Source: Candidatus Hadarchaeota archaeon (GTDB lineage Archaea; Hadarchaeota; Hadarchaeia; Hadarchaeales; Hadarchaeaceae). Taken from it: a stretch of 32,000 nucleotides of DNA. The stretch lies in contig CAZETV010000002.1 in the NCBI GenBank assembly GCA_964514965.1, forward strand, positions 60,001 through 92,000. Reading direction: 5' to 3'. This document shows positions 13,655-31,083 of the stretch, piece by piece. Made by a program: the position numbers and the translations under genes. The notes beneath the pieces are model-generated. The model was not told where the DNA came from. It ran no database searches and worked only from the letters and a program-made list of their open reading frames with translations. Positions within the stretch are counted from its first letter, which is position 1. Each line of letters starts with the position of its first letter.

Positions 13655-13655
13655 A

Positions 13656-14078
13656 TCATTTTTTCTTTACTTTCTTTGCTATCCCAATTAATTCCGTCTC
13701 TAATCTTTTACTAAAGCTACCTTTCCCACTAAAAACCTGATCTTTTAGAATTTTTATTCCGCCTGCAGCATATTCCTCGACTATTGAATACACTCTTTTT
13801 TTATCCAATAGCACTTCTAAATTACCTGCATCTTTTACAGCTACAGCGTTAATCAAAGCTTTTTCTGTATCGCTAAGGTATTCTGTCCTGATATATCCCG
13901 AGGGGTCCTTGTCTGTTATTTTGTGCTTTATTCCATTTTTGAATCCAACTACCATCGCTGCCAAAAATAAATGTTTTTTATTCTTGTTTCCAAATGGGCT
14001 ATCTTTTTCTTCCAGCCTTGAAAAATGTTCTTTATCACTTTTTCTAATGTAAATTATTGCTGGATCTTTACTTACCAT
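13656..14078 (-). CDS. Small protein reminiscent of 'DNA phosphorothioation (Dnd)-associated protein 4'-type proteins
   Basis: KHLFLAAMVVGFKNG...EYLSDTEKALINAVAVKDAGNLEVLLDKKRVYSIVEEYAAGGIKIL. An AGGTGG Shine-Dalgarno-like motif lies 6 nt before the ATG at 14078, so that start is preferred over the tracked TTG at 14120. The start overlaps the ATPase stop by 11 nt. The family call is from memory only. Confidence 0.45.
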   Translation of the reverse strand: MVSKDPAIIYIRKSDKEHFSRLEEKDSPFGNKNKKHLFLAAMVVGFKNGIKHKITDKDPSGYIRTEYLSDTEKALINAVAVKDAGNLEVLLDKKRVYSIVEEYAAGGIKILKDQVFSGKGSFSKRLETELIGIAKKVKKK

Positions 14079-14667
14079 ATTTTCCCACCTGCGCTTTTGA
14101 GCCTGTTTTAAGTTCTTCAAATATTATTTTGTATTCTCCAATCAAATTATCTGATAACTTTTTTCTGACGAATGGTGTATACTCGGTATCAGTCATTAAC
14201 AGAATAACTTGCTTGTTTTTTAGATATTTGGGTAAATTTTTGCAAATGTTTTCCCTTATTTCTCCAGAGATTCTACCCAGCGGGGTATCCATAACTATTG
14301 GGAAATCGAAACCAGAATATGCGCTCAAAGCATTTATGAATGATAATGCCAACGCTTCCATTTCACCTCTGCTTAAGCTTCCTAATCCTTCGTGGTCTGA
14401 TCTATGCGTGACGGAAATTTCATAATCATCGTTTATTTTTACATTTTTCCATTCATCTTTCTTCCAAATTAAATTGAAAAACGATTCTTTTGTGATTTGG
14501 TTAATTTTTTCTCTAGTGTCTTTCATAATGTTTTTTTTCACCTTAGTAGCCAATTCAACGGCTTCATCACAAAATGACACCACTTTGTTTAGCTCATCAA
14601 ATTCTTTAGATCTTTCTAGTTCTTTATCCCGTTCTCTTCTGTAGGTCTCGAACTGACTTTCGGCCAT
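14068..14667 (-). CDS. DndD-like SMC/ABC ATPase, C-terminal fragment (signature motif and Walker B)
   Basis: LSRGEMEALALSF is the ABC signature. FPIVMDTPLGRISGEIRENI...QVILLMTDTEY matches the DndD-type DTPLGRL Walker B/D-loop. This reading frame is actually open upstream to about 14806. Confidence 0.75.
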   Translation of the reverse strand: MAESQFETYRRERDKELERSKEFDELNKVVSFCDEAVELATKVKKNIMKDTREKINQITKESFFNLIWKKDEWKNVKINDDYEISVTHRSDHEGLGSLSRGEMEALALSFINALSAYSGFDFPIVMDTPLGRISGEIRENICKNLPKYLKNKQVILLMTDTEYTPFVRKKLSDNLIGEYKIIFEELKTGSKAQVGKYGK

Positions 14668-14702
14668 TTTAACTCGTGCCTCACGTTCACCGATATCTTC
14701 AC

Positions 14703-16028
14703 TTAATTTCGTGATTTCTGTATCAAGGTTTCCGTATCGTTTCTCCAGTATTTTAAATTTTTCTTCAATTTTTGAATCGACTTGTTCTTTAATTTTTTGC
14801 TTTTATTTTCATAGCCAGTTTCTAGTTTTTTGATTTCTCTTTCAAGTTTGATCATGCTTGTGTCAAAATTTTTAAGGTTATCGATGGATCGGGCTAAATC
14901 GGTTTTTAATTTAATCAAATCCGAACTAATGGCGGATATATCGCTTATTTTTTTAAGAAGACTCTCAACTTTTTTTCTACAACTGATATTCTTTTTAGTT
15001 ATGTCCGTCCCACAGATACAATTACCATCTTTAAGTAATTTTTCTAAATATTTTGGGTCTATATTTGGCGGTACATTTTCTTGGTCTTGTTCTCGAGTAA
15101 TCTCTTTAATTGTGGATTCTATAGCAGGATAAGTTAGTAAATGCAGGGAAGAATCTACAAGAAAATCCGTCAATTCATCTCTCTTATCTTTTATTGTTTT
15201 TTCAAGATCTTTCAAATCACGTTCAAGTTCTTCCCTGGTTTCCTGTAAGTTCCTTATATTTGGCATTGACTTTAATTCTTCGGCTATTTCGTTTTTATCC
15301 TTAACTTTCCCATCTTTTATTTTACGGAATTTTTCCAAGTCGGCTTTATAGTTGTTTAAGGATTTCTCCCAAGTATCAATTTTCTCTTGAGCATCTGCAA
15401 GAGCGGGAGTTAACTTTTTTGATTTTCTTACAAATTCGTTTTGTATTGCTCCCAAGTGCGATATCGCTTTTTCCAACACTTCCAATTGAGAAAGTTTAAA
15501 AATCTCCTTTTTTATCTCCTCACCAGATTTTTCTCTAAAATAACTTTCTAGCTTTTCACCATCAAAAAGAAAATAGTCTACAATACTCCCTGGTATCAAC
15601 TGATTAGCAACATAAGTCGGATCAGAAACAAATTTCATGTCGTCTCCGATTTCTCGTAAAAGTTCAAATTTTTGTTTGTTGGGAATTTCTTTTACTTCGC
15701 CATTTTCTTCACAATATTTTGTGCTTCTCACAAAAATCGCTTTATTTCCTTCATTGTCTGTCATTACAATTTCCACTTTTACTTCACATGCTGATGGACT
15801 CTCCTTTAAAGAAATAGTATTGACCGTGGGCAAAGCTAAACTTTTTTTATTTAGGTGTAACTCCCTGCCATATAAGCACCAAGTAATAGCGTTCATTATG
15901 TTTGTTTTCCCTGCCCCGTTTCTACCTTCTAAGACGACTATGTTTTTTTTGCCGAATGGTGCAGGGAACTCTATTATTTCATTTGCATATTGCCTATAAT
16001 TAATTAATTTAATTTTTTTAATTAACAT
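14703..16028 (-). CDS. DndD-like SMC/ABC ATPase, N-terminal fragment (Walker A and coiled coil)
   Basis: IKKIKLINYRQY...VVLEGRNGAGKTNIMNAITWCLYG is a Walker A with an SMC/Rad50-type N terminus. A long K/E-rich coiled coil follows. The last roughly 30 residues are out-of-frame read-through. Confidence 0.8.
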   Translation of the reverse strand: MLIKKIKLINYRQYANEIIEFPAPFGKKNIVVLEGRNGAGKTNIMNAITWCLYGRELHLNKKSLALPTVNTISLKESPSACEVKVEIVMTDNEGNKAIFVRSTKYCEENGEVKEIPNKQKFELLREIGDDMKFVSDPTYVANQLIPGSIVDYFLFDGEKLESYFREKSGEEIKKEIFKLSQLEVLEKAISHLGAIQNEFVRKSKKLTPALADAQEKIDTWEKSLNNYKADLEKFRKIKDGKVKDKNEIAEELKSMPNIRNLQETREELERDLKDLEKTIKDKRDELTDFLVDSSLHLLTYPAIESTIKEITREQDQENVPPNIDPKYLEKLLKDGNCICGTDITKKNISCRKKVESLLKKISDISAISSDLIKLKTDLARSIDNLKNFDTSMIKLEREIKKLETGYENKSKKLKNKSIQKLKKNLKYWRNDTETLIQKSRN

Positions 16029-16031
16029 GAA

Positions 16032-16202
16032 TTATTTCACCGCCTTTTTTACAAGATTTTCGTACGTTTCACTATACCACCAACGATCTTCCTCGGAGTG
16101 GTCTGTTTCTAACATCAATATTTCTTTCAGAAATTTTTTGGTTTTTTCACTATAATTGCTTTTTTCAATTTCTTTGATGATTCTTTCGTTTAATATAGCC
16201 AT
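16032..16202 (-). CDS. Untracked 56-aa ORF between the helicase and the ATPase
   Basis: Hand translation gives MAILNERIIKEIEKSNYSEKTKKFLKEILMLETDHSEEDRWWYSETYENLVKKAVK*. It starts 8 nt after the helicase stop and ends 3 nt before the ATPase ATG. Confidence 0.4.
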   Translation of the reverse strand: MAILNERIIKEIEKSNYSEKTKKFLKEILMLETDHSEEDRWWYSETYENLVKKAVK

Positions 16203-16210
16203 GTGAACCA

Positions 16211-18307
16211 CTATAGGTTAAATTCTTTCCTTATTTTTTTAACTTTTTCAAGACACTTCGGGGTGTTGTTAGCATCATATGCGAACTCTTCGTATCTCTT
16301 TAGCTCTTTTATCAGTATCTTCCTTTCCAATTCAAAAAAATCTGGTTCGAAAGAACGTTGCGAAGAGGGCAAAACAATAATGTCGTAGAGTGTGGCCTTG
16401 TCCTTTCCCGGAAAACGTCTTAAAAGCCTCCCTCTTCTTTGAATGAATTCTCTGGGATTACCCGAGCTCGAGAGCAATATGCCTGTTCTGGCGGGTGGAA
16501 CATCCACTCCTTCGTCTAAACATTTCATTGCAACTAAAATCTGATAATCGCCATCGGCAAATTTTCGGAGCAAAATTTCTCGTTGGGCAACGTTTTCGAC
16601 CGCTGTAAACTTGTGTTGTAAAATATCTCTGTCGTTTAAAATTCTTTGAACTCTCTTTATCTGTTTTGGCGAACAATAAACAAAGCAATGTCTGGCACCG
16701 CCACCGATCTTGTCTAATATTTTTTCAAAAACAACGTATTTGTTTTGAGCGTTTTTTACGGTCTCTTGACGTTTTATACATAACAAATTAAAAAGTTCCT
16801 TTCTCTCCTGGTTAGACTTGCATGCGTAATATTGTCGAGCAATTTTCTTAGTTTCAGATTGATAGAGGTAAAACTCTTCGTCAGTCATCTCGACGAAATA
16901 GGGTTCATATTCGTATGGTGTGAGATAAGTTTCTCCGGTTTTTGGATTTACAGTTGTGATGGCATCTTTTATAGAGAAAACTGATACTATATCTCCGAAA
17001 TACTCAAAAAGTTTTTTGCTTCCAGGTTCATCAAAATATCTTTTAGGTGTTGCACTTAACCCCAACCTGAATTCATATCGGTCTAACAAACCTTTTTGTC
17101 TCTCTGGTGCCCCGAGGGTATGAACTTCGTCGCCAATTAAAAATACTTTTGCGCTAGTTTCATTTATTATTTCAGTAAAATCATTACTAGAAATGGTATT
17201 TGGGGTAGTTAAAATTATTATTTTTTCACTAATGTCATTTTCTATGTCCCGCAAGTAGTCAACCAGTTTATTTTTCCAACCTGGATTGCTACTATCAGCG
17301 ATTACGATAAGCCAATGAATGTCAAATTTTATTATTTCATTTTCCCATTGTTTCAGCAAATGTTTGGTGGGTGAAGTAATGACAATGACAAGCTTTTTTT
17401 CTGATTCAGACATTTTCTTCAAACATCCCAACGCAGCAAACGTTTTCCCAGAACCTGTAGCCATTTCAAAAATCCCTTTCTTACCGTTTTCTAACCAATT
17501 AGCGATAGCACTCTCTTGATGAGTCCATAACTTGATTGCTTTTTTTCTTATCCATTCTTTCTTTATCAACCATTTGTCCAGATTCAAAACTTCAACATTG
17601 TCTGGAGCTATTTTAATAAGCTTTTCTTTTACGCCGGTGGGGACATCGATAACTTTTGTTCTTCTTGCCTGTCCATTCCAGAATTTTTCAAATTTTTTGA
17701 TATCTGTATCAAGATATTCTTTTTCAGTTTCTTTCCAACTACAAAATACTTTAAACTCTTCTATATGCCTCGTCCATCCATAAGCGCTTTCGTTATCAGA
17801 ACCGCTAAACGATATTCGGTTCCCTTCTACATCTTCTAATATACCGACCTTCTGATGAAACAATCCTTCTTTTTCGATAGATTCTTCATCAAGAGGTAGC
17901 CCGTCCTCATCATAAACGATTGCTATTTTAATTTCTAGTTTCTTTTTGGCAATCATCCACCCCAGTGCGCACACATGGTCTTCCACGAATTTATCTTCTA
18001 AATTTTCCAATTCTTCAAGCATCATTTTTTCTATCACTTTCTCAGGAGTTTCATGAGCTTCTCTAATAACTTCAACATCGGATTTTCGTAGTTTGGCGCT
18101 TGTAACTAAATACATGAATCCACCATTGGAAATCAATTTAGAAATTCCTCTCGCGGCAACAGCAAGAGCGCTTGAAGAGAAAAATCCAGCTAACCTTTTA
18201 TAAGTTACTGATTGGGATAATGCAAGTATGTAAAAGTCATTTAGAATATCGTCAATGTCGGAGTCGTAAGCTTTTTTTAGCTTTATACCCTTCAAGGTCA
18301 TGTTCAC
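16211..18307 (-). CDS. PLD-like (single HKD) nuclease domain fused to an SF2 (ResIII/DEAH-type) helicase
   Basis: The N-terminal region has YKRLAGFFSSSAL and FHQKVGILED...FSGSDN (HxK...GSxN). Helicase motifs are EMATGSGKTF (I), LIGDEVHTL (II), LGLSATP (III) and QRRGRLLR (VI). A GGAGG lies 7 nt before the ATG at 18301, so the start is probably 18301 rather than the GTG at 18307. Confidence 0.85.
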   Translation of the reverse strand: MNMTLKGIKLKKAYDSDIDDILNDFYILALSQSVTYKRLAGFFSSSALAVAARGISKLISNGGFMYLVTSAKLRKSDVEVIREAHETPEKVIEKMMLEELENLEDKFVEDHVCALGWMIAKKKLEIKIAIVYDEDGLPLDEESIEKEGLFHQKVGILEDVEGNRISFSGSDNESAYGWTRHIEEFKVFCSWKETEKEYLDTDIKKFEKFWNGQARRTKVIDVPTGVKEKLIKIAPDNVEVLNLDKWLIKKEWIRKKAIKLWTHQESAIANWLENGKKGIFEMATGSGKTFAALGCLKKMSESEKKLVIVITSPTKHLLKQWENEIIKFDIHWLIVIADSSNPGWKNKLVDYLRDIENDISEKIIILTTPNTISSNDFTEIINETSAKVFLIGDEVHTLGAPERQKGLLDRYEFRLGLSATPKRYFDEPGSKKLFEYFGDIVSVFSIKDAITTVNPKTGETYLTPYEYEPYFVEMTDEEFYLYQSETKKIARQYYACKSNQERKELFNLLCIKRQETVKNAQNKYVVFEKILDKIGGGARHCFVYCSPKQIKRVQRILNDRDILQHKFTAVENVAQREILLRKFADGDYQILVAMKCLDEGVDVPPARTGILLSSSGNPREFIQRRGRLLRRFPGKDKATLYDIIVLPSSQRSFEPDFFELERKILIKELKRYEEFAYDANNTPKCLEKVKKIRKEFNL

Positions 18308-18521
18308 GCCTCCAATTAAACTAACGACCCACTTTAATTACTTTTTTAGTCATTTAACTCTATTTATCTTCCTAATTCCATCCCAAGTAGTCCGCCTCGG
18401 TCTCGAAAACTCCTCAAAATTAGGACAAAGCCGACCCCGTTTTCTTGGCTACCAAGATTAAAAAACCAAATATTGCTATCGGCTGCCCTAGCGGTGCTTC
18501 TTCACCGGGTAGATCTCCTAC

Positions 18522-22056: not shown

Positions 22057-22698
22057 ATGCACGAAAACATCAGGCTCGGAGTGACCCGCCTCCAATCGGC
22101 TCTCGACTGCCCCCTCTGCTTCTGGCTCTCTCGGCGTATTGGCTCGCCTCCCTCCATCTTCGCCGGCATCCCCGCCCAGATTGACTCCGTGATCAAAAAT
22201 TACATGAAGCAATTCATCGGGAACTCGGATTTGCCTGAGTGGTTCCCCGTGCGCGGCACCTTCATGGACGCCAGCCAGACCCTGAGAGCAACCGACCCGA
22301 CCACCTGCATCACCGTGGTGGGAAAGCTCGATGCTTTGGTGAAGACGGCAGACGAAGAATATCACATCATCGACTACAAAACTGGCAGGCCCCCCAAGGA
22401 GGTTCCAAATTACTACCAAATGCAGCTCGACGGCTACGCCTACCTCCTCGAGCAAAACGATTTCCGGCCCGTGGTGGGCGGCACGTTGCTTTACTTCACG
22501 CCCGAGCATGGGGACCTCTCGGAGGGGCGCTTCCCGTTCAAAATCACCGCTGTGCGGGCCGAGGTTGACCCGGGCCGCATCCCGCCCGTTCTCGCGCTGG
22601 CCAGGGAAATCCTCGACTTGCAGACCCCGCCGCCCAGAAGCGAGGACTGCGAGATGTGCATGTGGCGGGAGCAGGTCGAGCACACTCTATCAGAATGA
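22057..22698 (+). CDS. Cas4/RecB-like PD-(D/E)XK nuclease with four cysteines
   Basis: N-terminal CPLC, IIDYKTG (D-x-K), YYQMQLDGYAYLL (QxxxY), and C-terminal CEMC. Confidence 0.65.
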   Translation: MHENIRLGVTRLQSALDCPLCFWLSRRIGSPPSIFAGIPAQIDSVIKNYMKQFIGNSDLPEWFPVRGTFMDASQTLRATDPTTCITVVGKLDALVKTADEEYHIIDYKTGRPPKEVPNYYQMQLDGYAYLLEQNDFRPVVGGTLLYFTPEHGDLSEGRFPFKITAVRAEVDPGRIPPVLALAREILDLQTPPPRSEDCEMCMWREQVEHTLSE

Positions 22699-22751: not shown

Positions 22752-23606
22752 CTAGAAAGGTGCGAATACGCCCATAAACACGAACCACGCCAAAATTGTT
22801 TTTGCGGCTAAACTGAGAATAACGTAAAATCGTTCGCCATAGAGGTAATCTCTCCAACGTCCGACACCTTTGTACTGTAAGACCATGTTGATCGCGAAGA
22901 TATTGAACAGAATGAAATAGATGAAAGGGATGAAGTATACGAATGTTGGAATTTCTCCTCCCACAGAGTTAACAGCAGCAACGAAATAGGCGAAAATCAC
23001 GACCCATGGAACCCAACCTGAAATCGTCCCCAAGATAAATGGCGACCAATTAGTCTTTTTTGTTTTCTGATTGAGAATTTCCATCAAATACCCGAACATT
23101 ATCATCATCGCGTTTAAGACGAAAATCATGATCAACGACCAAAAATCCCAGACACCCACCAACAGTGCAATCAGTAATATCATTATTGAGCTTGAGAAGG
23201 CGTACTCGTACCAGCGGTAAGGATTCATCCCTTTTTTCAAATTTTCATTGTAACGGTTATTTACCAGATACGAAATCGAAAAGTGCGCTATGGCAGAAAT
23301 TAGGAGGAAGGAAGCGAGAATCGCCCCCAAATATTCGAAAGTAAACAAAATTTGAGGATTCGGTACCACCTCGAATAGGATTGGTTCCGTAGTAATTATT
23401 TTTATATCAAGATAGAACGTGTATACATTTCTCGAAAACGTCAGAAGAAGACCCAACAGCAACATTGCTATCCCCTGAACTAAATGCAAAGAACCTGCGA
23501 TGGTGTTGAAGCGTTTCAGATAGGTAAAAGTTATAGGTGAGCTGGCGATTATTTTCTGCCTTTCTTTATAATCCATTGGTGCCCCCATAGTACTAAATAT
23601 GTCCAA
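22752..23606 (-). CDS. Heliorhodopsin
   Basis: FNTIAGSLHLVQ, NPYRWYEYAFSSSIMILLIA (counterion Glu), GWVPWV, and QYKGVGRWRDYLYGERFYVILSLAAKTILAW (Schiff-base Lys, codon at 22800-22802) parallel the published heliorhodopsins 48C12/TaHeR as I remember them. The likely true start is the ATG at 23588 or 23576. Confidence 0.85.
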   Translation of the reverse strand: MDIFSTMGAPMDYKERQKIIASSPITFTYLKRFNTIAGSLHLVQGIAMLLLGLLLTFSRNVYTFYLDIKIITTEPILFEVVPNPQILFTFEYLGAILASFLLISAIAHFSISYLVNNRYNENLKKGMNPYRWYEYAFSSSIMILLIALLVGVWDFWSLIMIFVLNAMMIMFGYLMEILNQKTKKTNWSPFILGTISGWVPWVVIFAYFVAAVNSVGGEIPTFVYFIPFIYFILFNIFAINMVLQYKGVGRWRDYLYGERFYVILSLAAKTILAWFVFMGVFAPF

Positions 23607-23771: not shown

Positions 23772-24476
23772 TTACGAAATCAGCGGAATTATCTCGTTTG
23801 TCACGTAATCCAGAAATTCATTCAGCTCAGCCCGGCTGAACATCGTCACCACGCAATCCCGGGTGATACCCACGACCAAGCCACGCTTTTGCAGTTCAAG
23901 AACCGTGTACCAAATCTTTCCGTGTTCAAGATAATCGCGGTAGAGCTTGGTGTCCGCGAGCGCTGATCCTGCGAGCGCTAGTTTCCCTACACTTGGGATA
24001 TCAACTTCGTCGAACCAGATGAGCTTCGTGGCGCGGGGGTTTGATTCGTGAAGCTCCTTTAAAGTTTCATGGGTAATCTTTGTCTCAACTATCCCCCCCG
24101 TCTTGATGAAAAGAATCTCGCTGAGTTTGTTCGCCACGTAGTTCGTCAGCAGCTTCTTCACCCCCCTAGCTTTTGAAGGCGCGAGCACGACAAGGAAAGT
24201 CCGATCTTTAAATCGCTTGATCCAGAAGGGGGTTTCTTCCGTGACCGGAGTTTCAACCAGTCCGCGCTTGTAATAACGGCTGAGCACGAAGTCCTTGCTA
24301 AAAATTCCCGCCAGCAAGTCGGCCTCTATCTTCAAATCCAAAATTTCCATCGCCAGTTTGAGCTGCTGCCCCTTTTGCTCGTACGGTACTTCTTCCCGGA
24401 AGTCCTTGAGCTTCTGGGCTATCAGCGCCAGCTCGATTGGCTCCTTGAGCTCGAATATCTTTGCGGCGAGGACCAT
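23772..24476 (-). CDS. Hypothetical 234-aa protein, divergent from the SMC-like operon
   Basis: Clean ORF with host-like composition. No motif recognised. Confidence 0.5.
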   Translation of the reverse strand: MVLAAKIFELKEPIELALIAQKLKDFREEVPYEQKGQQLKLAMEILDLKIEADLLAGIFSKDFVLSRYYKRGLVETPVTEETPFWIKRFKDRTFLVVLAPSKARGVKKLLTNYVANKLSEILFIKTGGIVETKITHETLKELHESNPRATKLIWFDEVDIPSVGKLALAGSALADTKLYRDYLEHGKIWYTVLELQKRGLVVGITRDCVVTMFSRAELNEFLDYVTNEIIPLIS

Positions 24477-24546
24477 ATGTCACCCTAAAGACTTAAACAC
24501 TGTGAGGGTTTAAAATTGAGGACGTATAAAATTTAAACTGGTACTT

Positions 24547-26460
24547 ATGTCTGCAAGCGCCATAATCCAAGAGATAATTCTAGAAAATTTCATGAGTTAC
24601 GAATATTCTAGAATCCCATTCAATCCGGGGCTCAACCTAGTTTGCGGTCCAAACGGCGCTGGAAAGTCATCAATTCTGCTCGCTCTAGCTGTGGCCCTTG
24701 GGCAGACCTACACCGAGCGCTCCCGTAAGCTCAGCGACCTCATCCGCCGGGGTAAGAATCTGGGACGAGTGAGCGTGGTGTTCGACAATTCCCCCCACAA
24801 TGGAAGGAGGCCCATCCCGAGCGTGAACTCTGATAGTCTAGTCCTTTCGCGCTATCTGAACCGCGACGGAACCTACTGGCATGAGGCCAATAACCGCACG
24901 ATAACGAAGGGCGAGGTGCTGCGGCTGCTCGGGCGGCTCTCGATAAACCCCGACAACATGCTCATCATCATGCACCAGAACATGATTGATGTGCTCGGGG
25001 CGATAGATGCACACGAGCGGCTAAAAATCATCGAGGAAGCGGTCGGGCTGCGCGAGTACCGGGAGCATATCCTCGAGGCGCGTGAGAAGCTTTCGCACAC
25101 CTTGAGCGAGGAGGAGTCGATTCGCAGCCTGCTCGAGAAAGCTCAAGAAACGTTGCGCTACTGGGAGGGCGAGTACGGGAGATTTCAGCGGAAGCAAGAG
25201 CTCGGAGAGCGGAAGCAGGAGCTAGAGCTGGAATACGCTTGGGCGAAATGTATCCGGCAGGAAGAGGCGGTCGGCAACCTTCAATCTAAACTCGACGGGC
25301 TAAAGTCAGAGCTGAGTGAGATCGAGGGCGAGCTGGAGCAAAACTCGAAACGTGGCGGGGAGCTTGAAAAAAAGTTGGGGGAACTTGGGTTTGAACTCGA
25401 TGCTGCCTATCAAAAGCTCATCACCCAAGAACGGGCACAAGCCGAAGCGGGGGCACGCGCCAAGCTCATTGAGAGTTTCAACACATCCATACGCTCGGTG
25501 GCCGAAGTTGGCTTGAGTGAATTGCTCGCACACCTCGAGGTCGAACTGGGGCGGGCGAAAGAAACCCTTAAAGAAGCCGGCGAGCGGGCGAATGAGGTGA
25601 AATCTGAACTCGTCAGGGGCAAGGGCGAACTCGAGAAAACCCAAGAAACTTACGTTAACTCCCGTATCCACACCGCCGTGCTGGGGTTCCGCCGCGAACT
25701 CCTAGAACGTGACATCTCAAGCGCTCAGTCCGAACTCAGGCGAGCACGCCGCGAGCTGGAACAACTGGAGAATGATGCCCAGCAATTGGGGACGCGGGTC
25801 GAGACCGAAAGAAAGCCCCAGGAAGTGCTCGATGAACTCAAACTCACCAACATCCAACTAGCCAGCTTAGCTGATGTCTCACCCGATGTCGAGAGGATGT
25901 ATCTAAACTACAAGGGTACACTCAAGGAACTCGAGGCAAAGGCCGAGGTAGCTGCAGCCAACCGTAAGCGGGCGCTCGATGAGCTGGAACTCAGAAAGCA
26001 GCGCTGGACCGATGAAACAAACAACCTTATACGTCAAGTTAAGGTGAACTACATCGAAATCCTGAAGCGAGTTAACGCGAGCGGTGATGTGATTCTGACG
26101 AACGCTCAAGATATCGACGAAGCAGGGATAGAGCTGTTCGTTGGTTTCAGGGGGTCCGAACCTCAGGTGCTGAACGCCTACACACAGAGCGGAGGGGAAC
26201 GAACGACTTCCCTAATGTGTTTTCTGCTGGCGCTGCAGCAACAAATTCAATCCCCCATCCGTGCAATCGACGAGTTTGAAGCCCATCTGGACCCACACAA
26301 TCGGGAGGCAATCCTGCAGGGGATTATAGAGTTCATGAAGGGCGGGGAGACGCAGTACATCGTGATCACCCCCGGACAGCTTTTCAACGTGAAAGGGATA
26401 CCAAACGTGATCACCGTTCAAAACATCGCGGGCTCATCTCAGGTGAAGGTGGCTGCTTGA
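24547..26460 (+). CDS. Short SMC-like ATPase with SMC5/6-like head motifs
   Basis: N terminus: IIQEIILENFMSYEY...LNLVCGPNGAGKSSILLALAVALG...ERSRKLSDLIRRG. About 380 aa of E/L/K/R coiled coil follows. C terminus: YTQSGGERTTSLMCFLLALQQQIQSPIRAIDEFEAHLDPHNREAIL. Confidence 0.85.
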   Translation: MSASAIIQEIILENFMSYEYSRIPFNPGLNLVCGPNGAGKSSILLALAVALGQTYTERSRKLSDLIRRGKNLGRVSVVFDNSPHNGRRPIPSVNSDSLVLSRYLNRDGTYWHEANNRTITKGEVLRLLGRLSINPDNMLIIMHQNMIDVLGAIDAHERLKIIEEAVGLREYREHILEAREKLSHTLSEEESIRSLLEKAQETLRYWEGEYGRFQRKQELGERKQELELEYAWAKCIRQEEAVGNLQSKLDGLKSELSEIEGELEQNSKRGGELEKKLGELGFELDAAYQKLITQERAQAEAGARAKLIESFNTSIRSVAEVGLSELLAHLEVELGRAKETLKEAGERANEVKSELVRGKGELEKTQETYVNSRIHTAVLGFRRELLERDISSAQSELRRARRELEQLENDAQQLGTRVETERKPQEVLDELKLTNIQLASLADVSPDVERMYLNYKGTLKELEAKAEVAAANRKRALDELELRKQRWTDETNNLIRQVKVNYIEILKRVNASGDVILTNAQDIDEAGIELFVGFRGSEPQVLNAYTQSGGERTTSLMCFLLALQQQIQSPIRAIDEFEAHLDPHNREAILQGIIEFMKGGETQYIVITPGQLFNVKGIPNVITVQNIAGSSQVKVAA

Positions 26461-26461
26461 A

Positions 26462-27253
26462 ATGCCGGGCGAACGCAAAGAACTGATGTTACGGATAATC
26501 GACCTCTGCGACACTGTGCGAAAGCGAGGAGTCGACCCCTTCGACGTTGAGGTTCGAGAGTTTTTTGACCGACTGCGGGAACTCCTCCCAAATCTGAAAA
26601 AGAATGAGGACCTTTATCTTGACATCCAAGCGGTGCTCGGGCTTGCCGATGTGGTGTTCCAGCAGGGCGAGTGGATCAAGCACAAGTCGTCGATGCTCTA
26701 CCTCGATCCCCTGCTGATTATGCTCAAGCTTCATGCCCTCCCGGCGCGAGAGCTTGCCGATGTCTTCGCGCGTTCATGGCACCCCATTGTGCAGATGGAG
26801 ACACTCTCGCCCCACGGCATTTCCGAGGCCAAGCAGTACTGGACTAATCTACCGAGCCTTGAAGAACGCTGGCGTGGGCTCGACACGACTGAGGTGTTTA
26901 CTGGGGAGATAGCCCGCCGAGAGCTCGTTCGCATGGGCATCCTTTCAGAGGAAGACTTCGCGGCGGTGCTTGATCAGACTTGGCGCGAGCTCAAGGAAGC
27001 GGTGGGGGAGCGGGGCGAAATCTCTTACTGGGATTTCATCCACAACCAGAGCTTCGAGGAAACCGTCAGGCGGGCATGGCTCGTGAGCTTCTTGGTGAGC
27101 TATGGCTACGCCACTCTCGAACTCAAGCCCCTTGAGGAGGAAATTTTGCTGAGACCGTTGCCCAAACCGCGAGAACTCGAACGTGTCACAACCTTCTCTG
27201 TCCCTATCGCTATTTCCCGTGACGAGTGGCTCAGGAGGCTAAAGGGTGGCTGA
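26462..27253 (+). CDS. Kleisin-like (ScpA/Nse4-like) subunit candidate
   Basis: Starts 1 nt after the SMC stop. The N-terminal helix region (RIIDLCDTVRKRGVDPFDVEVREFFDRLRELL) and the C-terminal WHD-like segment (FEETVRRAWLVSFLVSYGYATLELKPLEEEILLRPL) resemble ScpA-type kleisins. Confidence 0.55.
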   Translation: MPGERKELMLRIIDLCDTVRKRGVDPFDVEVREFFDRLRELLPNLKKNEDLYLDIQAVLGLADVVFQQGEWIKHKSSMLYLDPLLIMLKLHALPARELADVFARSWHPIVQMETLSPHGISEAKQYWTNLPSLEERWRGLDTTEVFTGEIARRELVRMGILSEEDFAAVLDQTWRELKEAVGERGEISYWDFIHNQSFEETVRRAWLVSFLVSYGYATLELKPLEEEILLRPLPKPRELERVTTFSVPIAISRDEWLRRLKGG

Positions 27254-27857
27254 GGAACCAGATGTCGCCGAGCTACGGGAAAAGCTGGCGCGGGCTGCAC
27301 AGCTCCTGCTCTACAAGCACCACATGCAACCGGGAGCCAAGGAATGGGAGCTCAGGCGCACTCTGGGCAGGGACTACGAGCAGATTCTGAAGCTTCTCGA
27401 CGCCGAATTCGATAAACTGGGGCTAAAAGTAAAGCGAGTGAGCGAGGGCGAGACCAGCTCGGAATCGGACAGATATTATGTCACGCTCCGAGGGCATCCG
27501 AGAGTGACCGAGACCCGAACCTTCGGGTGGCGGATTGATGACATGGCAATGCTCACCGTCGCGCTCGCCCACATCCTATCAAAACAGGGAAAAGCCCCCC
27601 TCAAAGAGGTCGAGCGAATGTTGGAGGAAAAATTCCCGCGCTGGCGCATCGAGTCGACTTTAGACCGGTTCATCCGGCGGGGCTACCTGTCGGAGGATGA
27701 TGAAGGGTTGCTCTACGTGGGGTGGCGCGCTCGGGCGGAAATCGACCAGCGAACTCTGCTCGGGTTGTTGTTGGGGAAAGAAGAGAAGCCTAACGAAGCT
27801 GAGGCCGAGCCGAAAGTCGAAACCAAGAAAGTAGAAGAAACTAAAGGAGATAGCTAA
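27246..27857 (+). CDS. KITE-type winged-helix protein (MAGE/Nse3-/ScpB-like) candidate
   Basis: AAQLLLYKHHMQPGAKEWELRRTLGRDYEQILKLLDAEFDKLGLKVKRV...RYYVTLRG parallels the MAGE-homology/Nse3 WH-A pattern. A second WH-like half and an acidic/lysine tail follow. It overlaps the kleisin gene by 8 nt. Confidence 0.5.
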   Translation: MAEEPDVAELREKLARAAQLLLYKHHMQPGAKEWELRRTLGRDYEQILKLLDAEFDKLGLKVKRVSEGETSSESDRYYVTLRGHPRVTETRTFGWRIDDMAMLTVALAHILSKQGKAPLKEVERMLEEKFPRWRIESTLDRFIRRGYLSEDDEGLLYVGWRARAEIDQRTLLGLLLGKEEKPNEAEAEPKVETKKVEETKGDS

Positions 27858-28206: not shown

Positions 28207-31083
28207 TTACGCCAACCTGAATCGCCTGAACAAAGCTTCCCGCTCTTTTCGAAGCAGGAGCTCGAAAAATTTGCTTGACATCTTCTGCTCCTTTGCTAAT
28301 ATCTCCCCCGCGGCCGCTTGTGTGATTCCCTTACCAGCCAATGTTACAGCCGCGAGCTTTCCATATTGGCCGATAAGTTTAGCACTCCCCTGCAGTTCTT
28401 TCCAAGTCGGACTTTTCCTCCCTCGCTCCAAGAGTTCGATCGCCCGCCGGACCTCTTCAGCCGGCTTTTCGACCATCCCCAGCATCGTCGACCCACAGCG
28501 CGGACACTTCGGTTTTTCATCGAGTTCGTGGAGCTGGAGTTCCTTGACATGATCCTTGCATTGAGTGCACGCGAAGGTGCGGGCCTCGCTGAGCAGCCGC
28601 GCTTTGGTCGAGGCTATCGCCAGCAGCCTGAGGCGCTCGGGCATCATCGGCTCAAGAGCTAGGTAGCGCTTGCGCCACAACGCCAAGTTGGACACGGGGG
28701 TTGGCTCTTCCCGCTCCCCCAACGAGACCAGTTCTATTTCACCACTTCGAATACTTTCGAGCACCTCGAGCGTGCGCTTCAGATCGAGGTCCTTGCGCAC
28801 GACTTCCTTGAATGTTTCTTCAAATGCTGGCGTTCCTTTGAGGCCGCGCATTAGCTTATCGAGGGTCACGCTTGTGAGCTCTGCCTCGCGCTCGAGTACG
28901 CCCATCCGCCGGGCTATCTGCGCAAGGCGCCACCGGAAGAACCGGCTCTCCTCGATTATCACGCGGAGGTCCTTCTTGAGGTCCGTGCTGAACCCGCCGC
29001 GCAATATCTCGATCACACCTTTTGGCTCGAGTGTCTCCGAGTGGAGCAGGATCCGGTAGGGGTCAATTGAGGTTGCGGTTGTCTCCCCGAGCTCGGTCGA
29101 GGCCTTGTAGGCGAGCAGCCGGGCAAGCGTTCGGTTGACAAGTGTTCCAAAGCAAGCGTTGACGATACAGAGCTCCTTAACTTTTTCTACAGTTACCCGC
29201 CGATCCGTGGGCACGGGCAACACAGCTTTGACCTGCTTGTGGGTGTCGGAGATGGCGGGTTCCATCGTGTCACGCGAAACGCCGTACCGCCCCGCAAGCT
29301 CTCGGACGATTTCATCAAATTCTTTGCCTGCACGTGAAAACTCCTCAAGTTGGGCCCGGAGCTTGCCGGCCTCCTGCGCGACTGAGTAGGGCACAGGGAT
29401 TTCTTCGCCTATCCAAGTCGGAATCGCCCCGAGAGGGTCGTTGTCGGGCTTCACGTAGACTTTGTCCTTGAAGACCTGGAGCACCCGCCAGATCTCACCT
29501 CCTATCACAAATTTTACCCCGGGTTCGCCATACTCCGCAACGAAAGACTCGTCCAAAATCCCGACTGGCTGGTTACGCTCGTCGTTGATTACGAGGTACT
29601 GCCGGACTTCAGGAATCATCGAGAGGTTTCCGAAATAATAGTTGAAAACCCGTTCCGTCGCTCGCGGGCGTGCAAACTCTTTCCCATCCTCGGAGACCAG
29701 CGCTAACCGCTTTTCTAAACTCTGCGCGAACTGGAGCACCTCGAGCAAGTCCTCCCGCTTGAGGTTCCTGAACGGGTAAGCGCGCCGGAAAATTTCGTAA
29801 ACATCATCAACGCTTACTCTCCGCTGTACCACCATGATCGAAACCAGCGCATGGAGAAGCACGTCGAGGGGCTTCTCGGGAACGATAACGGGCTCAAGCT
29901 CTTGCCGATGAGACCGGTCGGCTATCACGATTGACTCGAGTGCGTCTTCCGGGTCTTGAACCATGATTACCCCTTTGGCCACCCCGCCTATCCTGTGGCC
30001 GCTCCGCCCGACTCGCTGGAGCAAGCGAGTGGCCTGGCGAGGAGAATTGTACTGGATAACTAGGTCTATTCGCCCGATGTCCAACCCTAGCTCCATGCTC
30101 GAAGTGCAGACGATCCCTTTGAGCTCACCCTGTTTCAGCCCTCGCTCGGACCGGAGCCTCGAGAAGCCCGACAGTGACCCATGGTGGACGCTGAGAGGAA
30201 AACGAATATCCCAGAGGCGGAAGCGACTCGCCAAGATTTCAGCGGTTGCGCGTGTGTTGGTGAAGACGAGCGTGGAACCGTGCTCTTCGATTAACTTTCG
30301 CATCGTGCGTAAACGGGCAGCAACTGGAGAGTAAGTGTAGAGTTCTGATGCCAGCCGTTCGTCGCGCTTGGTCGCTGCGGGGTAGAGGATATCCAGTTCC
30401 AACTCACGAACGACGCTAACATCTACAACCTCGCATGATCTATCCACACCTGCCAGAAATCTGGCGACCTCCTGCGGGGAACCAATTGTGGCGGAAAGCC
30501 CGATGAGCTGGAATTCTCCACCTTTGAGCTTGCGCAGCCTTTCGAGTGTGAGGGCAAGCTGTACCCCGCGCTTGTTGTCAGCCAGCTCGTGGACCTCGTC
30601 AATAATCACCCACCGCACGCTTCGCAGGTGCTGACTCAGTCTCCGGCCCATCAGGAATATCTGAAGGGTCTCAGGAGTGGTGATCAAAACATCTGGTGGG
30701 ATTAATGCCTGTGCTCGCCGCTCACGCGCCGCCGTGTCCCCGTGACGGACTGATATCCGTAGGTCGAGAGCACGACACCACCACTCCAGCCGCTCAAGCA
30801 TGTCACGGTTGAGGGCCCGAAGTGGAGTGATGTAGATTACCTTTATCCCACGTTCGCGCGTCTGTGATACCAAGAGTTGGTGTAGCACCGGTAAGAAAGA
30901 GGCTTCCGTCTTTCCCGTACCCGCTGGAGCAATCAGCAGAACATTTTTGCCTTCAAGGATTTTGGGAATTGCTCTGCTTTGTGGGTGGGTAGGCTCGGTG
31001 AATCCCCGCTCGGCCAGCAACTTTCGGATTGGTCTGGCCAGTGAATCAAACACGTTGGATTCGTCCGACGTTTTAAACCCCAT
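28207..31083 (-). CDS. lhr: Lhr-family ATP-dependent DNA helicase (DEAD/DEAH box) with a C-terminal zinc ribbon
   Basis: PTHPQSRAIPKILEGKNVLLIAPAGTGKTE, IIDEVHEL, GLSATIG and QRVGRSGHR, followed by a long Lhr-type WH/domain-4 region. CTQC...x17...CPRCG lies near the C terminus. Confidence 0.9.
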   Translation of the reverse strand: MGFKTSDESNVFDSLARPIRKLLAERGFTEPTHPQSRAIPKILEGKNVLLIAPAGTGKTEASFLPVLHQLLVSQTRERGIKVIYITPLRALNRDMLERLEWWCRALDLRISVRHGDTAARERRAQALIPPDVLITTPETLQIFLMGRRLSQHLRSVRWVIIDEVHELADNKRGVQLALTLERLRKLKGGEFQLIGLSATIGSPQEVARFLAGVDRSCEVVDVSVVRELELDILYPAATKRDERLASELYTYSPVAARLRTMRKLIEEHGSTLVFTNTRATAEILASRFRLWDIRFPLSVHHGSLSGFSRLRSERGLKQGELKGIVCTSSMELGLDIGRIDLVIQYNSPRQATRLLQRVGRSGHRIGGVAKGVIMVQDPEDALESIVIADRSHRQELEPVIVPEKPLDVLLHALVSIMVVQRRVSVDDVYEIFRRAYPFRNLKREDLLEVLQFAQSLEKRLALVSEDGKEFARPRATERVFNYYFGNLSMIPEVRQYLVINDERNQPVGILDESFVAEYGEPGVKFVIGGEIWRVLQVFKDKVYVKPDNDPLGAIPTWIGEEIPVPYSVAQEAGKLRAQLEEFSRAGKEFDEIVRELAGRYGVSRDTMEPAISDTHKQVKAVLPVPTDRRVTVEKVKELCIVNACFGTLVNRTLARLLAYKASTELGETTATSIDPYRILLHSETLEPKGVIEILRGGFSTDLKKDLRVIIEESRFFRWRLAQIARRMGVLEREAELTSVTLDKLMRGLKGTPAFEETFKEVVRKDLDLKRTLEVLESIRSGEIELVSLGEREEPTPVSNLALWRKRYLALEPMMPERLRLLAIASTKARLLSEARTFACTQCKDHVKELQLHELDEKPKCPRCGSTMLGMVEKPAEEVRRAIELLERGRKSPTWKELQGSAKLIGQYGKLAAVTLAGKGITQAAAGEILAKEQKMSSKFFELLLRKEREALFRRFRLA

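Follow-up and report, generated by a model that had tools for sequence, protein, structure and literature searches.

Background

Archaeal gene clusters that encode an SMC5/6-related SMC together with an Nse4-like kleisin and an Nse1/3-like kite have been described by Yoshinaga and Inagaki in 2021 (PMC8665677) and by van Hooff et al. (bioRxiv 2024/25, 10.1101/2024.01.07.573240). Table S3 of the latter study lists such a cluster for Hadesarchaea archaeon WYZ-LMO6; for other Hadarchaeales genomes it records an SMC related to SMC5/6 and a kite related to Nse1/3. In the published matrix, Nse4_related is set to 0 in five Hadarchaeota rows, WYZ-LMO6 not being among these five. All SMC complexes are described as hinge dimers in the main text, and neither paper mentions arm length or a missing hinge.

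Here we describe an operon of Hadarchaeales from a window of 32,000 nucleotides (the whole stretch of DNA analysed, positions 60,001 to 92,000 of contig CAZETV010000002.1; coordinates below are those of the window). It has the same three families, gene order and lineage as the published clusters and is a member of this already published kind, Hadarchaeales included, as seen in the grouping of the SMC head, the Nse4-branch kleisin, the MAGE-type kite and the linkage of the three genes. Its kleisin is clearly Nse4-like, whereas Nse4_related is 0 for Hadarchaeota in the part of the published matrix cited above, and its architecture, a short arm without a hinge, we found to be unreported in the papers cataloguing such operons. 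We consider it likely that the operon encodes an archaeal SMC5/6-type complex from one gene each for an SMC, a kleisin of the Nse4 type and a kite of the Nse1/3 (MAGE) type, probably acting as a DNA clamp of heads, kleisin and kite in which dimerisation is by the heads alone.

Organization of the operon

The three genes lie on the forward strand and run from the SMC gene (24547-26460, 637 aa, ATG start) through the kleisin gene (26462-27253, 263 aa, ATG) to the kite gene (27246-27857, 203 aa, GTG). The coordinates are exactly those given in the first-pass annotation of this DNA, and the 1-nt gap and subsequent 8-nt overlap reported there were confirmed at both junctions by sequence reading. 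At the first junction (...gct TGA a ATG...) a single nucleotide separates stop from start, with GGTGAAGGTGG just before; at the second, GGAGGctaaaggGTGgcTGA, the 8-nt overlap is GTGGCTGA and a GGAGG Shine-Dalgarno-like site is present. All three genes are translationally coupled. The GTG start of the kite gene is consistent with the N-termini of 24 homologs. Because gene 1 has more than 100 homologs (620-652 aa, 57-100% identity), and the kleisin and kite have hundreds each, the three are real genes and no chance ORFs.

A divergent promoter region (24477..24546) separates the SMC gene from an upstream gene for a 234-aa protein. Two A/T-rich TATA-box-like elements can be read in it, TTTAAAAT (about 24509) and TATAAAAT (about 24525), the second of which precedes the SMC ATG by 15-22 nt; both may be archaeal TATA boxes, and the transcript of the SMC operon would have a short leader or none. 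A Pbe defence island is found 6 kb from the operon.

The SMC head is of the SMC5/6 type

Pfam, PDB and Foldseek searches, an AF2 model and a neighbour-joining (NJ) tree were used to delimit, in the first protein, an N-terminal head (aa 1-168), an antiparallel coiled-coil arm (aa 169-508) and a C-terminal head (aa 509-637). The protein matches Pfam SMC_N at 3.5e-33; phmmer against the PDB places SMC5 (2.4e-27), Pyrococcus Smc (3.1e-25) and SMC6 (1.4e-22) above Rad50 (1.9e-8) and RecF (4.6e-5); and the best Foldseek match of the model is an Smc head with coiled coil and joint (5xei), followed by Smc6 and Smc5. Judged by sequence and predicted fold, gene 1 encodes a genuine SMC.

Its ATPase motifs were compared with those of eukaryotic SMC5 and SMC6 and of canonical SMCs. 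Walker A, GPNGAGKS (24646..24669, aa 34-41), falls in columns that are invariant in the family alignments, and the ABC signature QSGGER (aa 547-552) and Walker B/D-loop IRAIDEFEAHLDPHNR (aa 571-586) lie at 26185..26304. At the H-loop position, QYIVITP (26353..26373, aa 603-609) has Thr-Pro like SMC5/6 where canonical Smc has Thr-His, residues Q603, T608 and P609 being invariant in the same alignments. QSGGER, DEF..H.DP.NR after Walker B and QY..ITP at the H-loop agree with eukaryotic SMC5/6, and there is no agreement with the canonical Smc motifs DEVDAALD and ..ITH/ISL..VYG. By this comparison the motif set is complete and of the SMC5/6 type, which upholds the closeness to SMC5/SMC6 rather than canonical Smc proposed earlier from motifs that could all be found again (ENFMSYEY at aa 13-20, ERSRKLSDLIRRG at 57-69, QSGGERTTSLMCFLLALQ at 547-564 and IRAIDEFEAHLDPHNRE at 571-587).

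A phylogeny of the head domains, suggested in the first-pass annotation, likewise puts the protein on the SMC5/6 side: a rough NJ tree (320 head columns, 42 taxa, without a Rad50 outgroup or SMC1-4 sequences) recovers in 200/200 bootstraps a split between canonical SMCs and a group made up of the short family, the archaeal forms that have a hinge, SMC5 and SMC6. In an exhaustive search covering 1.84 billion representatives, the full-length matches next after the archaeal family were 22 SMC5-type, four eukaryotic SMC6-type and six canonical-type proteins, with 153 bits for the best SMC5 and 119 bits for the best canonical-type protein.

It had been left open at first whether the protein belongs to the Sph- or coalescin-type proteins. 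It does not, and the view that it is a member of the ASRPs (coalescin/ClsN, Sph1/2) or a repair ATPase of the Rad50/RecN type is refuted at the level tested and now has next to no credibility. ASRPs, Rad50 and RecN are, like the hadarchaeal SMC, hinge-less SMC-superfamily ATPases with a coiled coil of moderate length, its size of about 600 aa without a hinge is ASRP-like, and sub-threshold matches to ASRP and Rad50 models do occur. Those matches, however, amount to 68 bits against a cutoff of 300 for ASRP model NF045487 (52-107 bits in relatives) and 68 bits against 847 for Rad50. Rad50 models as a whole give at most 68 bits for cutoffs of 700-1087 and recF gives 46 bits for 172, the PDB search ranking SMCs far higher; a placement of gene 1 with Rad50, RecN or RecF, which would have undercut the initial reading, was not seen in the PDB and fold searches, both of which favour SMCs. 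ASRPs and Rad50 dimerise via a zinc hook and RecN via its coiled-coil tip, whereas the zinc hook typical of ASRPs (PMC9389158) is missing from the hadarchaeal SMC; the word 'kleisin' occurs 0 times in that ASRP paper, which names no partner of either type, kleisin or kite. An assignment to Rad50, RecN or RecF is further opposed by the SMC-type fold found here and by the presence of a kleisin and a kite as partners. Rad50 and RecN are not known to have such partners.

The kleisin and kite subunits

In the kleisin, the homologous region is the C-terminal winged-helix part (approximately aa 137-258). It contains a Pfam Nse4_C match (nt 27020-27130, aa 187-223; 4.1e-4) that lies below the gathering score (21 bits vs 26); the same model is matched in 25/25 family members, the best at 1.1e-6, and the family profile retrieves only EID3/NSE4B (6.5e-6) and yeast Nse4 (9.4e-5) from the PDB. 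No homology was detected for the N-terminal domain and no profile matched over the N-terminus, nor was there a Pfam match to ScpA for either the protein or its family. Of the kleisin-like elements first noted at both ends of the protein, the C-terminal one stands, and the ScpA-like N-terminal one has no profile match behind it. The family-level matches support an Nse4-type kleisin, weak as the score of this particular sequence is.

The kite has two winged-helix domains, at approximately aa 5-81 and 97-176, followed by a charged tail that is disordered (178-203); its AF2 model is of medium confidence (pLDDT 65). The best Foldseek matches are the MAGE-G1/NSE1 complex 5hvq, MAGEA4 2wa0 and Nse1-Nse3-Nse4 7dg2 (E 3e-4 to 6e-4, probability 1.0, TM 0.34-0.39), with MukE lower (E of at least 0.02) and ScpB not among the 50 matches listed. 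Pfam MAGE is weakly matched in 19/25 homologs and SMC_Nse1 in 7/25, the Pfam scores of the protein itself being below gathering, and its sequence profile found nothing in the PDB. The MAGE/Nse3-like character that had been assigned to gene 3 agrees with these fold and family matches, and a tandem winged-helix protein of the MAGE/Nse3 type is supported by the model and, weakly, by sequence.

These subunits bear on another reading, that of a canonical Smc-ScpA-ScpB condensin that has degenerated and lost arm length, which is largely refuted and in our opinion very improbable. SMC_prok_A is indeed the best-scoring NCBIfam model, and the Pyrococcus Smc head is among the best PDB and fold matches. 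But SMC_prok_A reaches 166 bits for a cutoff of 729, the motifs are SMC5/6-type, the NJ tree is opposed in 200/200 bootstraps, the kleisin matches Nse4 only, and the kite matches MAGE/Nse3 better than MukE; neither ScpA nor ScpB was matched. Moreover, a separate cluster of condensin-type SMC, kleisin and ScpB is reported from a Hadarchaeales genome in the data of van Hooff et al. (10.1101/2024.01.07.573240). Measured directly as a canonical Smc-ScpAB, the locus gives 166 vs 729 bits with TIGR02169 and 144 vs 567 bits with TIGR02168, and no match to SMC_hinge, ScpA or ScpB. What the two systems have in common is the logic of SMC, kleisin and kite dimer, a (here presumed) homodimeric SMC, the operon and the head/coiled coil/joint fold (5xei). 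Smc-ScpAB differs in the motifs DEVDAALD and ITH...VYG, a hinge domain and arms 47-49 nm long, none of which the hadarchaeal SMC has, and in its ScpA and ScpB, the kleisin and kite here being on the Nse4 and Nse1/3 branches.

A short arm without a hinge

In the AF2 model of the SMC (pLDDT 78), a helix (169-316) is followed by a 7-residue turn (317-323) and by helices 324-508, so that about 340 helical residues form an antiparallel hairpin of some 20 nm with a joint-like break at 415-446; the N-terminal arm helix alone, with 148 residues at 0.148 nm each, would span about 22 nm. The coil between the heads had initially been put at about 380 aa, a trivial difference that leaves the short arm as it was. 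The turn at the apex, SVAEVGL (25495..25515, aa 317-323), modelled as a loop between helices 169-316 and 324-414, occupies the usual position of a hinge or zinc hook.

As the first reading had held, hinge and hook are both missing: Pfam SMC_hinge has no match in the protein, and CxxC is absent from its sequence on direct reading as well as from all 47 complete short-form relatives. Among 48 short forms, aa 301-340 are the least conserved (0.13-0.14) and the richest in gaps (0.45-0.56), and over aa 301-358 no residue is conserved at 90% or more even within Hadarchaeales, the rest of the SMC having many such residues. Sequence and model agree in showing a short coiled-coil arm with no hinge domain, CxxC hook or conserved apex. 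Complete short-form SMCs of 548-685 aa make up at least 47 clusters (50% identity), and nested inside them is a paralogous branch with a central CxxC that resembles a zinc hook.

Proposed mechanism

We infer that a complex forms, what its stoichiometry is, that it clamps DNA and that the apices do not dimerise, taking the steps from solved Smc5/6-Nse1/3/4 and Smc-ScpAB structures. By this analogy two SMC copies would form a homodimer via ATP-dependent head engagement, the kleisin would bind the neck of one SMC through its N-terminus and the second SMC's cap through its C-terminal winged helix, a kite dimer would sit on the middle part of the kleisin, and SMC heads, kleisin and kites would clamp double-stranded DNA above the engaged heads. 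Because the apex does not have the look of any dimerisation interface, the SMC dimer is probably held by heads and kleisin alone. Such a machine could serve genome maintenance (repair or replication-associated) as an ATP-gated clamp, bridge or sensor that acts locally on DNA, rather than extruding loops over long range or forming a large topological ring.

With the same SMC5/6-type identity, the arm tips might instead dimerise as in RecN, via a helical interface that is cryptic and evolves fast, and a small closed ring with arms of about 20 nm would then entrap or extrude DNA like other SMC complexes. The arms are well predicted as coiled coils with a joint, like those of bona fide SMCs, the CxxC-bearing paralogous branch within the short forms suggests selection for apex dimerisation, and an Smc engineered with a zinc hook in place of its hinge is discussed in PMC5344682. 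We nevertheless regard tip dimerisation as rather unlikely, the apex being the least conserved and most gap-rich region family-wide, lacking the well-conserved residues that might be looked for over aa 301-358 even in Hadarchaeales, and offering only a 7-residue turn in the AF2 model.

The core of eukaryotic Smc5/6 resembles the hadarchaeal complex in the motifs QSGGERS, ..DE...MDP.NER and QY..ITP, in the Nse4-type C-terminal winged helix of its kleisin, in a tandem winged-helix kite of the MAGE type and in a plausible DNA-clamp head module. It is, however, a Smc5/Smc6 heterodimer with a hinge, whereas a single SMC gene (hence a predicted homodimer) with a hairpin apex is found here; it has both Nse1 and Nse3, against a single kite gene here (203 aa) that lacks a RING domain; it has Nse2 and Nse5/6, none of which is encoded in the operon; and its SMCs measure about 1,050-1,130 aa, against 637 aa. 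The locus does not encode a eukaryotic SMC5/6 holocomplex, with its hinge-joined heterodimer, two kites, Nse2 and Nse5/6.

We would tentatively suggest, as a possibility short of an even chance, that hinge-less, hook-less SMC5/6-type complexes with arms of about 20 nm, their SMC dimer held by ATP-engaged heads and kleisin alone and so clamping DNA without a hinge-closed compartment, form a widespread natural class in Hadarchaeota and in Thermoproteota (TACK), Bathyarchaeia and Thermofilales for example. No natural machine of SMC, kleisin and kite would then be smaller, and close paralogs would have re-invented apex dimerisation via a Rad50-like CxxC hook.

Conservation of the operon and its neighbours

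Hadarchaeales, MSBL1, Bathyarchaeia and Thermofilales share the operon as a conserved unit. The three-gene order is kept in 9/10 non-Hadarchaeal loci, the exception being L009; linked loci are L002-L007 and L010-L012 (MSBL1, Bathyarchaeota, Thermofilales, 'Thaumarchaeota' UBA160, Thermoproteota) and also L084-L087, and the SMC-kleisin-kite order persists in Hadarchaeales with unrelated flanks. Linkage in other archaea, the point on which the first-pass annotation had staked its reading, extends across phyla. A housekeeping character is favoured by the presence of a single locus that is conserved, at 57-100% identity, across an order.

A role in defence against plasmids or viruses (Wadjet-like, Lamassu-like, or as human SMC5/6 acts on episomal DNA) rather than in chromosome maintenance seems improbable to us. 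Restriction of extrachromosomal DNA by eukaryotic SMC5/6 and Wadjet is described in PMC10586767, PADLOC gives matches to mad3, LmuB, AriA and PtuA at the level of the N-terminal ATPase, and the Pbe island is close by. These PADLOC matches are, however, generic ABC-ATPase matches, with none for the kleisin, the kite or the upstream gene; the operon lacks a nuclease effector of the JetD, MksG or LmuA type; it is a single locus of normal GC (0.51-0.56, against 0.33-0.36 in the Pbe island); and its identity across the order and presence in several phyla are unlike patchy defence genes. As to membership in Wadjet or Lamassu, no JetA/B/D or LmuA-type partners were found, and the SMC matches only generic ATPase models in PADLOC.

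The upstream gene (23772..24476, reverse strand) encodes a 234-aa protein with no match in Pfam, NCBIfam, PADLOC or PDB. It is adjacent to the operon and divergent in MSBL1 (67% identity), in Bathyarchaeota (42%) and in other Hadarchaeales whose flanks are otherwise unrelated, and is a candidate partner of the operon; 57/69 metagenomic loci with homologs of this protein have no adjacent SMC. Downstream and convergent with the operon lies a gene for a 958-aa Lhr-type DNA helicase (28207..31083, reverse strand; Pfam DEAD, Helicase_C, WH_Lhr and DEAD_assoc). The helicase is absent at L084-L087, L004 and L012, and is a recurring but partial neighbour, not a constant one: it is also present in close Hadarchaeal relatives, and orthologs of 45-47% identity stand convergent and downstream of the kite in L005 and L006 (Thermofilales) and in L011 (Thermoproteota).

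An operon encoding an SMC of the SMC5/6 type

The three genes form one operon on the + strand, in which gene 1 (24547-26460, an ORF of 637 aa) encodes an SMC protein, gene 2 (26462-27253, 263 aa) a kleisin and gene 3 (27246-27857, 203 aa, with a GTG start) a kite (KITE subunit). Reading the ORFs and junctions directly gives the same boundaries as the first-pass annotation, and all the peptide motifs it quoted occur in the window proteins: a 1-nt gap separates genes 1 and 2 (...gctTGAaATG..., with GGTGAAGGTGG ahead of the junction) and an 8-nt overlap joins genes 2 and 3 (GGAGGctaaaggGTGgcTGA). Two TATA-like elements, TTTAAAAT and TATAAAAT, lie in the 70 nt 5' of gene 1, a region common to the SMC gene and a divergently oriented neighbour gene; a sigma-70 promoter/terminator scan is not meaningful in an archaeon.

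Judged by its sequence, gene 1 encodes a true SMC of the SMC5/6 type. The protein matches Pfam SMC_N (3.5e-33) and reaches the cutoff of no NCBIfam model (SMC_prok_A, 166 bits vs a cutoff of 729; Rad50, 68 vs 847; the SMC-related proteins specific to archaea, or ASRP, 68 vs 300). Membership of the ASRP/coalescin group is rejected on that last score. Against solved structures, yeast SMC5 (2.4e-27), Pyrococcus Smc (3.1e-25) and SMC6 (1.4e-22) come first, followed by SMC3, SMC2 and SMC1 and then by Rad50 (1.9e-8) and RecF (4.6e-5), a ranking which places the protein, as first proposed, with the SMCs rather than with Rad50 or RecF. When 1.84 billion representatives are searched exhaustively with HMMER, its own family ranks first; the best long matches next in rank are 22 SMC5-type, 4 eukaryotic SMC6-type and 6 canonical-type proteins, with top scores of 153 bits for SMC5 and 119 bits for the canonical type.

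The head motifs had been read from the outset as closer to SMC5/6 than to canonical SMC, and both motif comparison and phylogenetic analysis agree. Three motif positions distinguish the SMC5/6 branch from canonical proteins, and gene 1 is SMC5/6-like at all three. Its ABC signature is QSGGER. The segment past Walker B is DEFEAHLDPHNRE (family consensus DEFDVHMDPxNRE), to be compared with DEINQGMDPxNER in SMC5, DEFDVFMDxVNR in SMC6 and DEVDAALDxxN in canonical SMC, and the H-loop position reads QYIVITP, where SMC5/6 have QY..[IL]TP and canonical proteins QFIVITH/ISL followed by VYG. A contig scan with the pattern DE[FY]D[VI]H[ML]D has no Hadarchaeota among the matches listed because the window's gene 1, which reads DEFEAHLD, is unlike that pattern. 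For 42 taxa, the two halves of the head were concatenated (320 columns) and a neighbour-joining (NJ) tree was computed from Kimura-corrected distances. In 200/200 bootstraps it sets the canonical SMCs of bacteria and archaea apart from a group made up of the gene 1 family, archaeal relatives that carry a hinge, SMC5 and SMC6; the tree is a rough one, built without a Rad50 outgroup or SMC1-4.

Nse4-type kleisin and MAGE/Nse3-type kite

By profile comparison, gene 2 is an Nse4-type kleisin. Taken alone, its protein gives a sub-threshold match to Pfam Nse4_C (4.1e-4, 21 bits vs a threshold of 26), a model matched by 25/25 diverse homologs (best 1.1e-6). The family profile retrieves only Nse4 proteins from 177,635 PDB sequences (human EID3/NSE4B, 6.5e-6; yeast Nse4, 9.4e-5), in an alignment spanning the C-terminal winged-helix region (profile positions ~137-258). 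Neither Pfam nor the PDB profile search gave a match to ScpA, and no homolog could be detected for the helical N-terminal part. The initial identification as a kleisin stands, with a C-terminus of the Nse4 type, whereas the ScpA-like N-terminal element that was part of it finds no counterpart.

Gene 3 is, according to its predicted fold, a MAGE/Nse3-type kite; the fold match leads, the sequence evidence being weak. Its protein matches Pfam MAGE at 0.006, 19/25 homologs match that model weakly (SMC_Nse1, 7/25), and its sequence profile found nothing in the PDB, where only fold comparison gave matches. The AlphaFold2 model (25-sequence alignment, pLDDT 65, pTM 0.50) consists of a pair of winged-helix domains with a charged, disordered tail. 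Foldseek places first among PDB structures the MAGE-G1/NSE1 complex (5hvq), MAGEA4 (2wa0, 9bd3) and Nse1-Nse3-Nse4 (7dg2), the top matches having E-values of 3e-4 to 6e-4 and a probability of 1.0; MukE ranks below the MAGE/Nse3 proteins and ScpB is absent among the 50 matches listed. TM-scores are low (0.34-0.39), as would be expected for two domains in differing orientations. Together with the Pfam matches of the homologs, this ranking bears out the MAGE/Nse3-like start noticed in gene 3 before any search.

Conservation of the operon and published relatives

The best 120 gene 1 homologs (57-100% identity, 514-652 aa, most of them 620-652) have Hadesarchaea, Hadarchaeum or Hadarchaeales as their named hosts, and relatives include sequences of hot-spring organisms such as Candidatus Hadarchaeum yellowstonense. 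Their annotations go no further than 'AAA family ATPase', 'hypothetical protein' or 'chromosome segregation ATPase', the first two of which conceal the family of gene 1.

The three-gene linkage pointed out in the window is found again in other archaea. The order SMC-kleisin-kite is kept on contigs of MSBL1 (L002, L003), Bathyarchaeota (L004, L010, L012), an unclassified archaeon (L005), Thermofilales (L006), 'Thaumarchaeota' UBA160 (L007), a Thermoproteota MAG (L011) and other Hadarchaeales with flanks unrelated to the window's (L084-L087); the exception is a Bathyarchaeal SMC (L009) with no kleisin or kite found downstream. On a Geothermarchaeales MAG contig (L001, 6001-7381), the kleisin (53% identical) and kite (61% identical) have no SMC beside them and lie immediately downstream of a type IA topoisomerase gene (Toprim, Topoisom_bac, Zn_ribbon_Top1). 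In one Hadarchaeal lineage (L084/L085, 1220-5875), the four-gene block directly adjoins the MCR (methyl/alkyl-coenzyme M reductase) alpha, beta, gamma operon; the block therefore stays together while its surroundings vary.

SMC5/6-related operons of this kind have already been published, Hadarchaeales included, and the window holds a further member. Yoshinaga and Inagaki (2021; PMC8665677) defined 'SMC5/6-related' archaeal SMCs, found mostly in TACK and in some Euryarchaeota, with which the host lineage is classed. Archaeal Nse4-related kleisins and Nse1/3-like kites are reported by van Hooff et al. (bioRxiv 10.1101/2024.01.07.573240; 2024, version of May 2025), with SMC, kleisin and kite paralogs in separate operons, condensin/cohesin-related vs SMC5/6-related. 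In their Table S3 both clusters are listed for an example genome, Hadesarchaea archaeon WYZ-LMO6 (SMC5_SMC6_related is 0 for it in the matrix, though its SMC5/6-related cluster is listed in the same file), and other Hadarchaeales are scored with an SMC5/6-related SMC and an Nse1/3-related kite. The DSZJ01 and DTKF01 rows are scored as lacking a canonical smc-scpAB cluster; were one also missing from the window's genome, the short complex would be the cell's sole SMC complex. The first-pass interpretation is right, though published for Hadarchaeales already. In the five Hadarchaeota rows shown of the matrix, Nse4_related is 0, yet the kleisin is clearly Nse4-like here, so the published pipeline missed the Hadarchaeal kleisin; going by those rows, the short SMC and the kleisin of this lineage evidently escape automated detection. 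Resting on independent profile and fold evidence, the operon confirms that an SMC5/6-type module, complete with SMC, Nse4-like kleisin and MAGE-like kite, occurs outside eukaryotes, a point already in the literature.

A short arm without a hinge

The part that appears to be unreported is the hinge-less, short-arm architecture, common to a broad family. The searchable text and supplements of Yoshinaga and Inagaki and of van Hooff et al. make no mention of arm length or a missing hinge, and a full-text literature search found no paper describing this form. AlphaFold2, run on a 32-sequence alignment, models gene 1 (pLDDT 78) as an N-head followed by a continuous helix (169-316), a 7-residue turn (317-323, SVAEVGL), helices 324-414 and 447-508, between which lie short joint-like breaks (415-423, 441-446), and the C-head. 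The fold closest to this model is the head, coiled coil and joint of Pyrococcus Smc (5xei), ahead of Smc6 and Smc5. Taking 0.148 nm per residue, the 148-residue helix gives an arm of ~22 nm, compared with a reported 47-49 nm for canonical Smc arms (PMC5344682, PMC5526789); this is a conserved natural complex with arms under half the usual length and no hinge.

Among 48 complete short forms (hinge-less gene 1 relatives), aa 301-340 are the least conserved (column identity 0.13-0.14) and the most gap-rich stretch (0.45-0.56), and the Hadarchaeales alignment has no residue at least 90% conserved in aa 301-358, with many such residues in the heads and proximal arms. The lack of hinge and CxxC hook, noted early on, holds throughout: the Pfam scan of gene 1 found no SMC_hinge, the model has a hairpin turn, and CxxC occurs in 0/47 complete short-form clusters (548-685 aa, clustered at 50% identity). 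The existence of these 47 clusters also rules out an assembly artefact as the origin of the short form.

Five Bathyarchaeial clusters (P0373, P0383, P0388, P0421, P0424) are ~1,016-1,047 aa long, 38-44% identical to the window SMC, and carry a single central C[DE][KR]CGS motif, a candidate Rad50-like zinc hook, without a Pfam hinge; they score 85-97 bits against the ASRP model (cutoff 300). These CxxC forms sit inside the short forms in the NJ tree, and no kleisin or kite was found at the one such locus examined (L168 2105-5248; downstream), for which reasons we reject them as 'full-length ancestors'; they represent a paralog of their own rather than the parent form. P0452, an 835-aa relative from an Asgard archaeon (Freyarchaeum), does match SMC_hinge (4.6e-11). 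P0447, short and hinge-less (633 aa), groups with it outside the main short-form clade, a pairing in a rough tree which hints at repeated hinge loss.

A possible mechanism

Starting from the established gene organisation, family assignments, complete ATPase motif set and hairpin arm, and by homology to the solved Smc5/6-Nse1/3/4 and Smc-ScpAB structures, two SMC copies would form an ATP-engaged homodimer, the kleisin would bridge the neck of one to its partner's cap, a kite dimer would be seated on the kleisin and DNA would be clamped on the SMC heads. Given an apex so short, variable and domain-less, we think that the heads and kleisin alone hold the SMC dimer; against this apex, the main mechanistic rival, a cryptic apex dimer that would give a small closed ring, seems rather unlikely. 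Held by heads and kleisin, the complex could serve in genome maintenance as an ATP-gated clamp or bridge that acts locally on DNA. A role in defence is more improbable still, as the kleisin and kite partners have no PADLOC matches, the operon has no effector nuclease and a normal GC content, and conservation of the locus extends across an order.

The added value of the operon is its architecture; SMC models (DNA entrapment, segment capture, loop extrusion) give roles to long arms and a dimerising hinge. If assembled as predicted, the complex would be a compact test system of three small genes for the sufficiency of heads, kleisin and kite in ATP-gated DNA clamping, and for what hinge and long arms add. 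This hinge-less, short-arm form is worth a biochemical look.

Neighbouring genes

Divergent from the SMC gene, a 234-aa protein (23772-24476, - strand) has no Pfam, NCBIfam, PADLOC or PDB match. It stays divergently placed in MSBL1 (67% identity), a Bathyarchaeote (42%) and further Hadarchaeales whose flanks are unrelated (equivalents at L002 2559-3272, L012 5146-5835, L084 6139-6843 and L086 6228-6932), and is a candidate partner of the SMC complex. In a metagenome scan of its homologs (58-67% identity), SMC, kleisin and kite are all missing nearby in 57/69 informative loci, on which ground a dedicated fourth subunit is rejected; the neighbours vary, any one being shared by at most 5/64 loci. 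RadB-like and PolB genes lie upstream at one of these loci.

Just past the kite gene, a convergent Lhr-type helicase gene (28207-31083, - strand; DEAD, Helicase_C, WH_Lhr, DEAD_assoc) is also found, 45-47% identical and again convergent, at three distant TACK loci, in the unclassified archaeon (L005 9336-12068), Thermofilales (L006 4068-6785) and the Thermoproteota MAG (L011 2545-5274). It is absent beside the operon in other Hadarchaeales and Bathyarchaeota loci. Recurring in distant loci and missing from others, it is not an obligatory associate; the adjacency may reflect a functional tie with DNA repair or may be ancient synteny.

A low-GC island (~13650-18310, - strand; GC 0.33-0.36 vs ~0.5 elsewhere) holds a Pbe (Dnd-related) defence module with PbeA (16211-18307, - strand; PADLOC E 2e-231), a 154-aa ORF of no known identity (13656-14120, - strand) and the SMC-like ATPase PbeC, which looks interrupted or pseudogenised, being split between two - strand ORFs (14703-16028 and 14068-14667, covering model positions 3-421 of 618 and 467-618). 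A stand-alone PD-(D/E)XK / Cas4-like nuclease (22057-22698, + strand; PDDEXK_1 1.5e-14, TIGR00372 cas4 sub-threshold) has no CRISPR-Cas genes seen near it. Two genes upstream of the SMC operon, this subsurface-type archaeon carries a heliorhodopsin gene (22752-23606, - strand; Pfam PF18761, E 2e-91).
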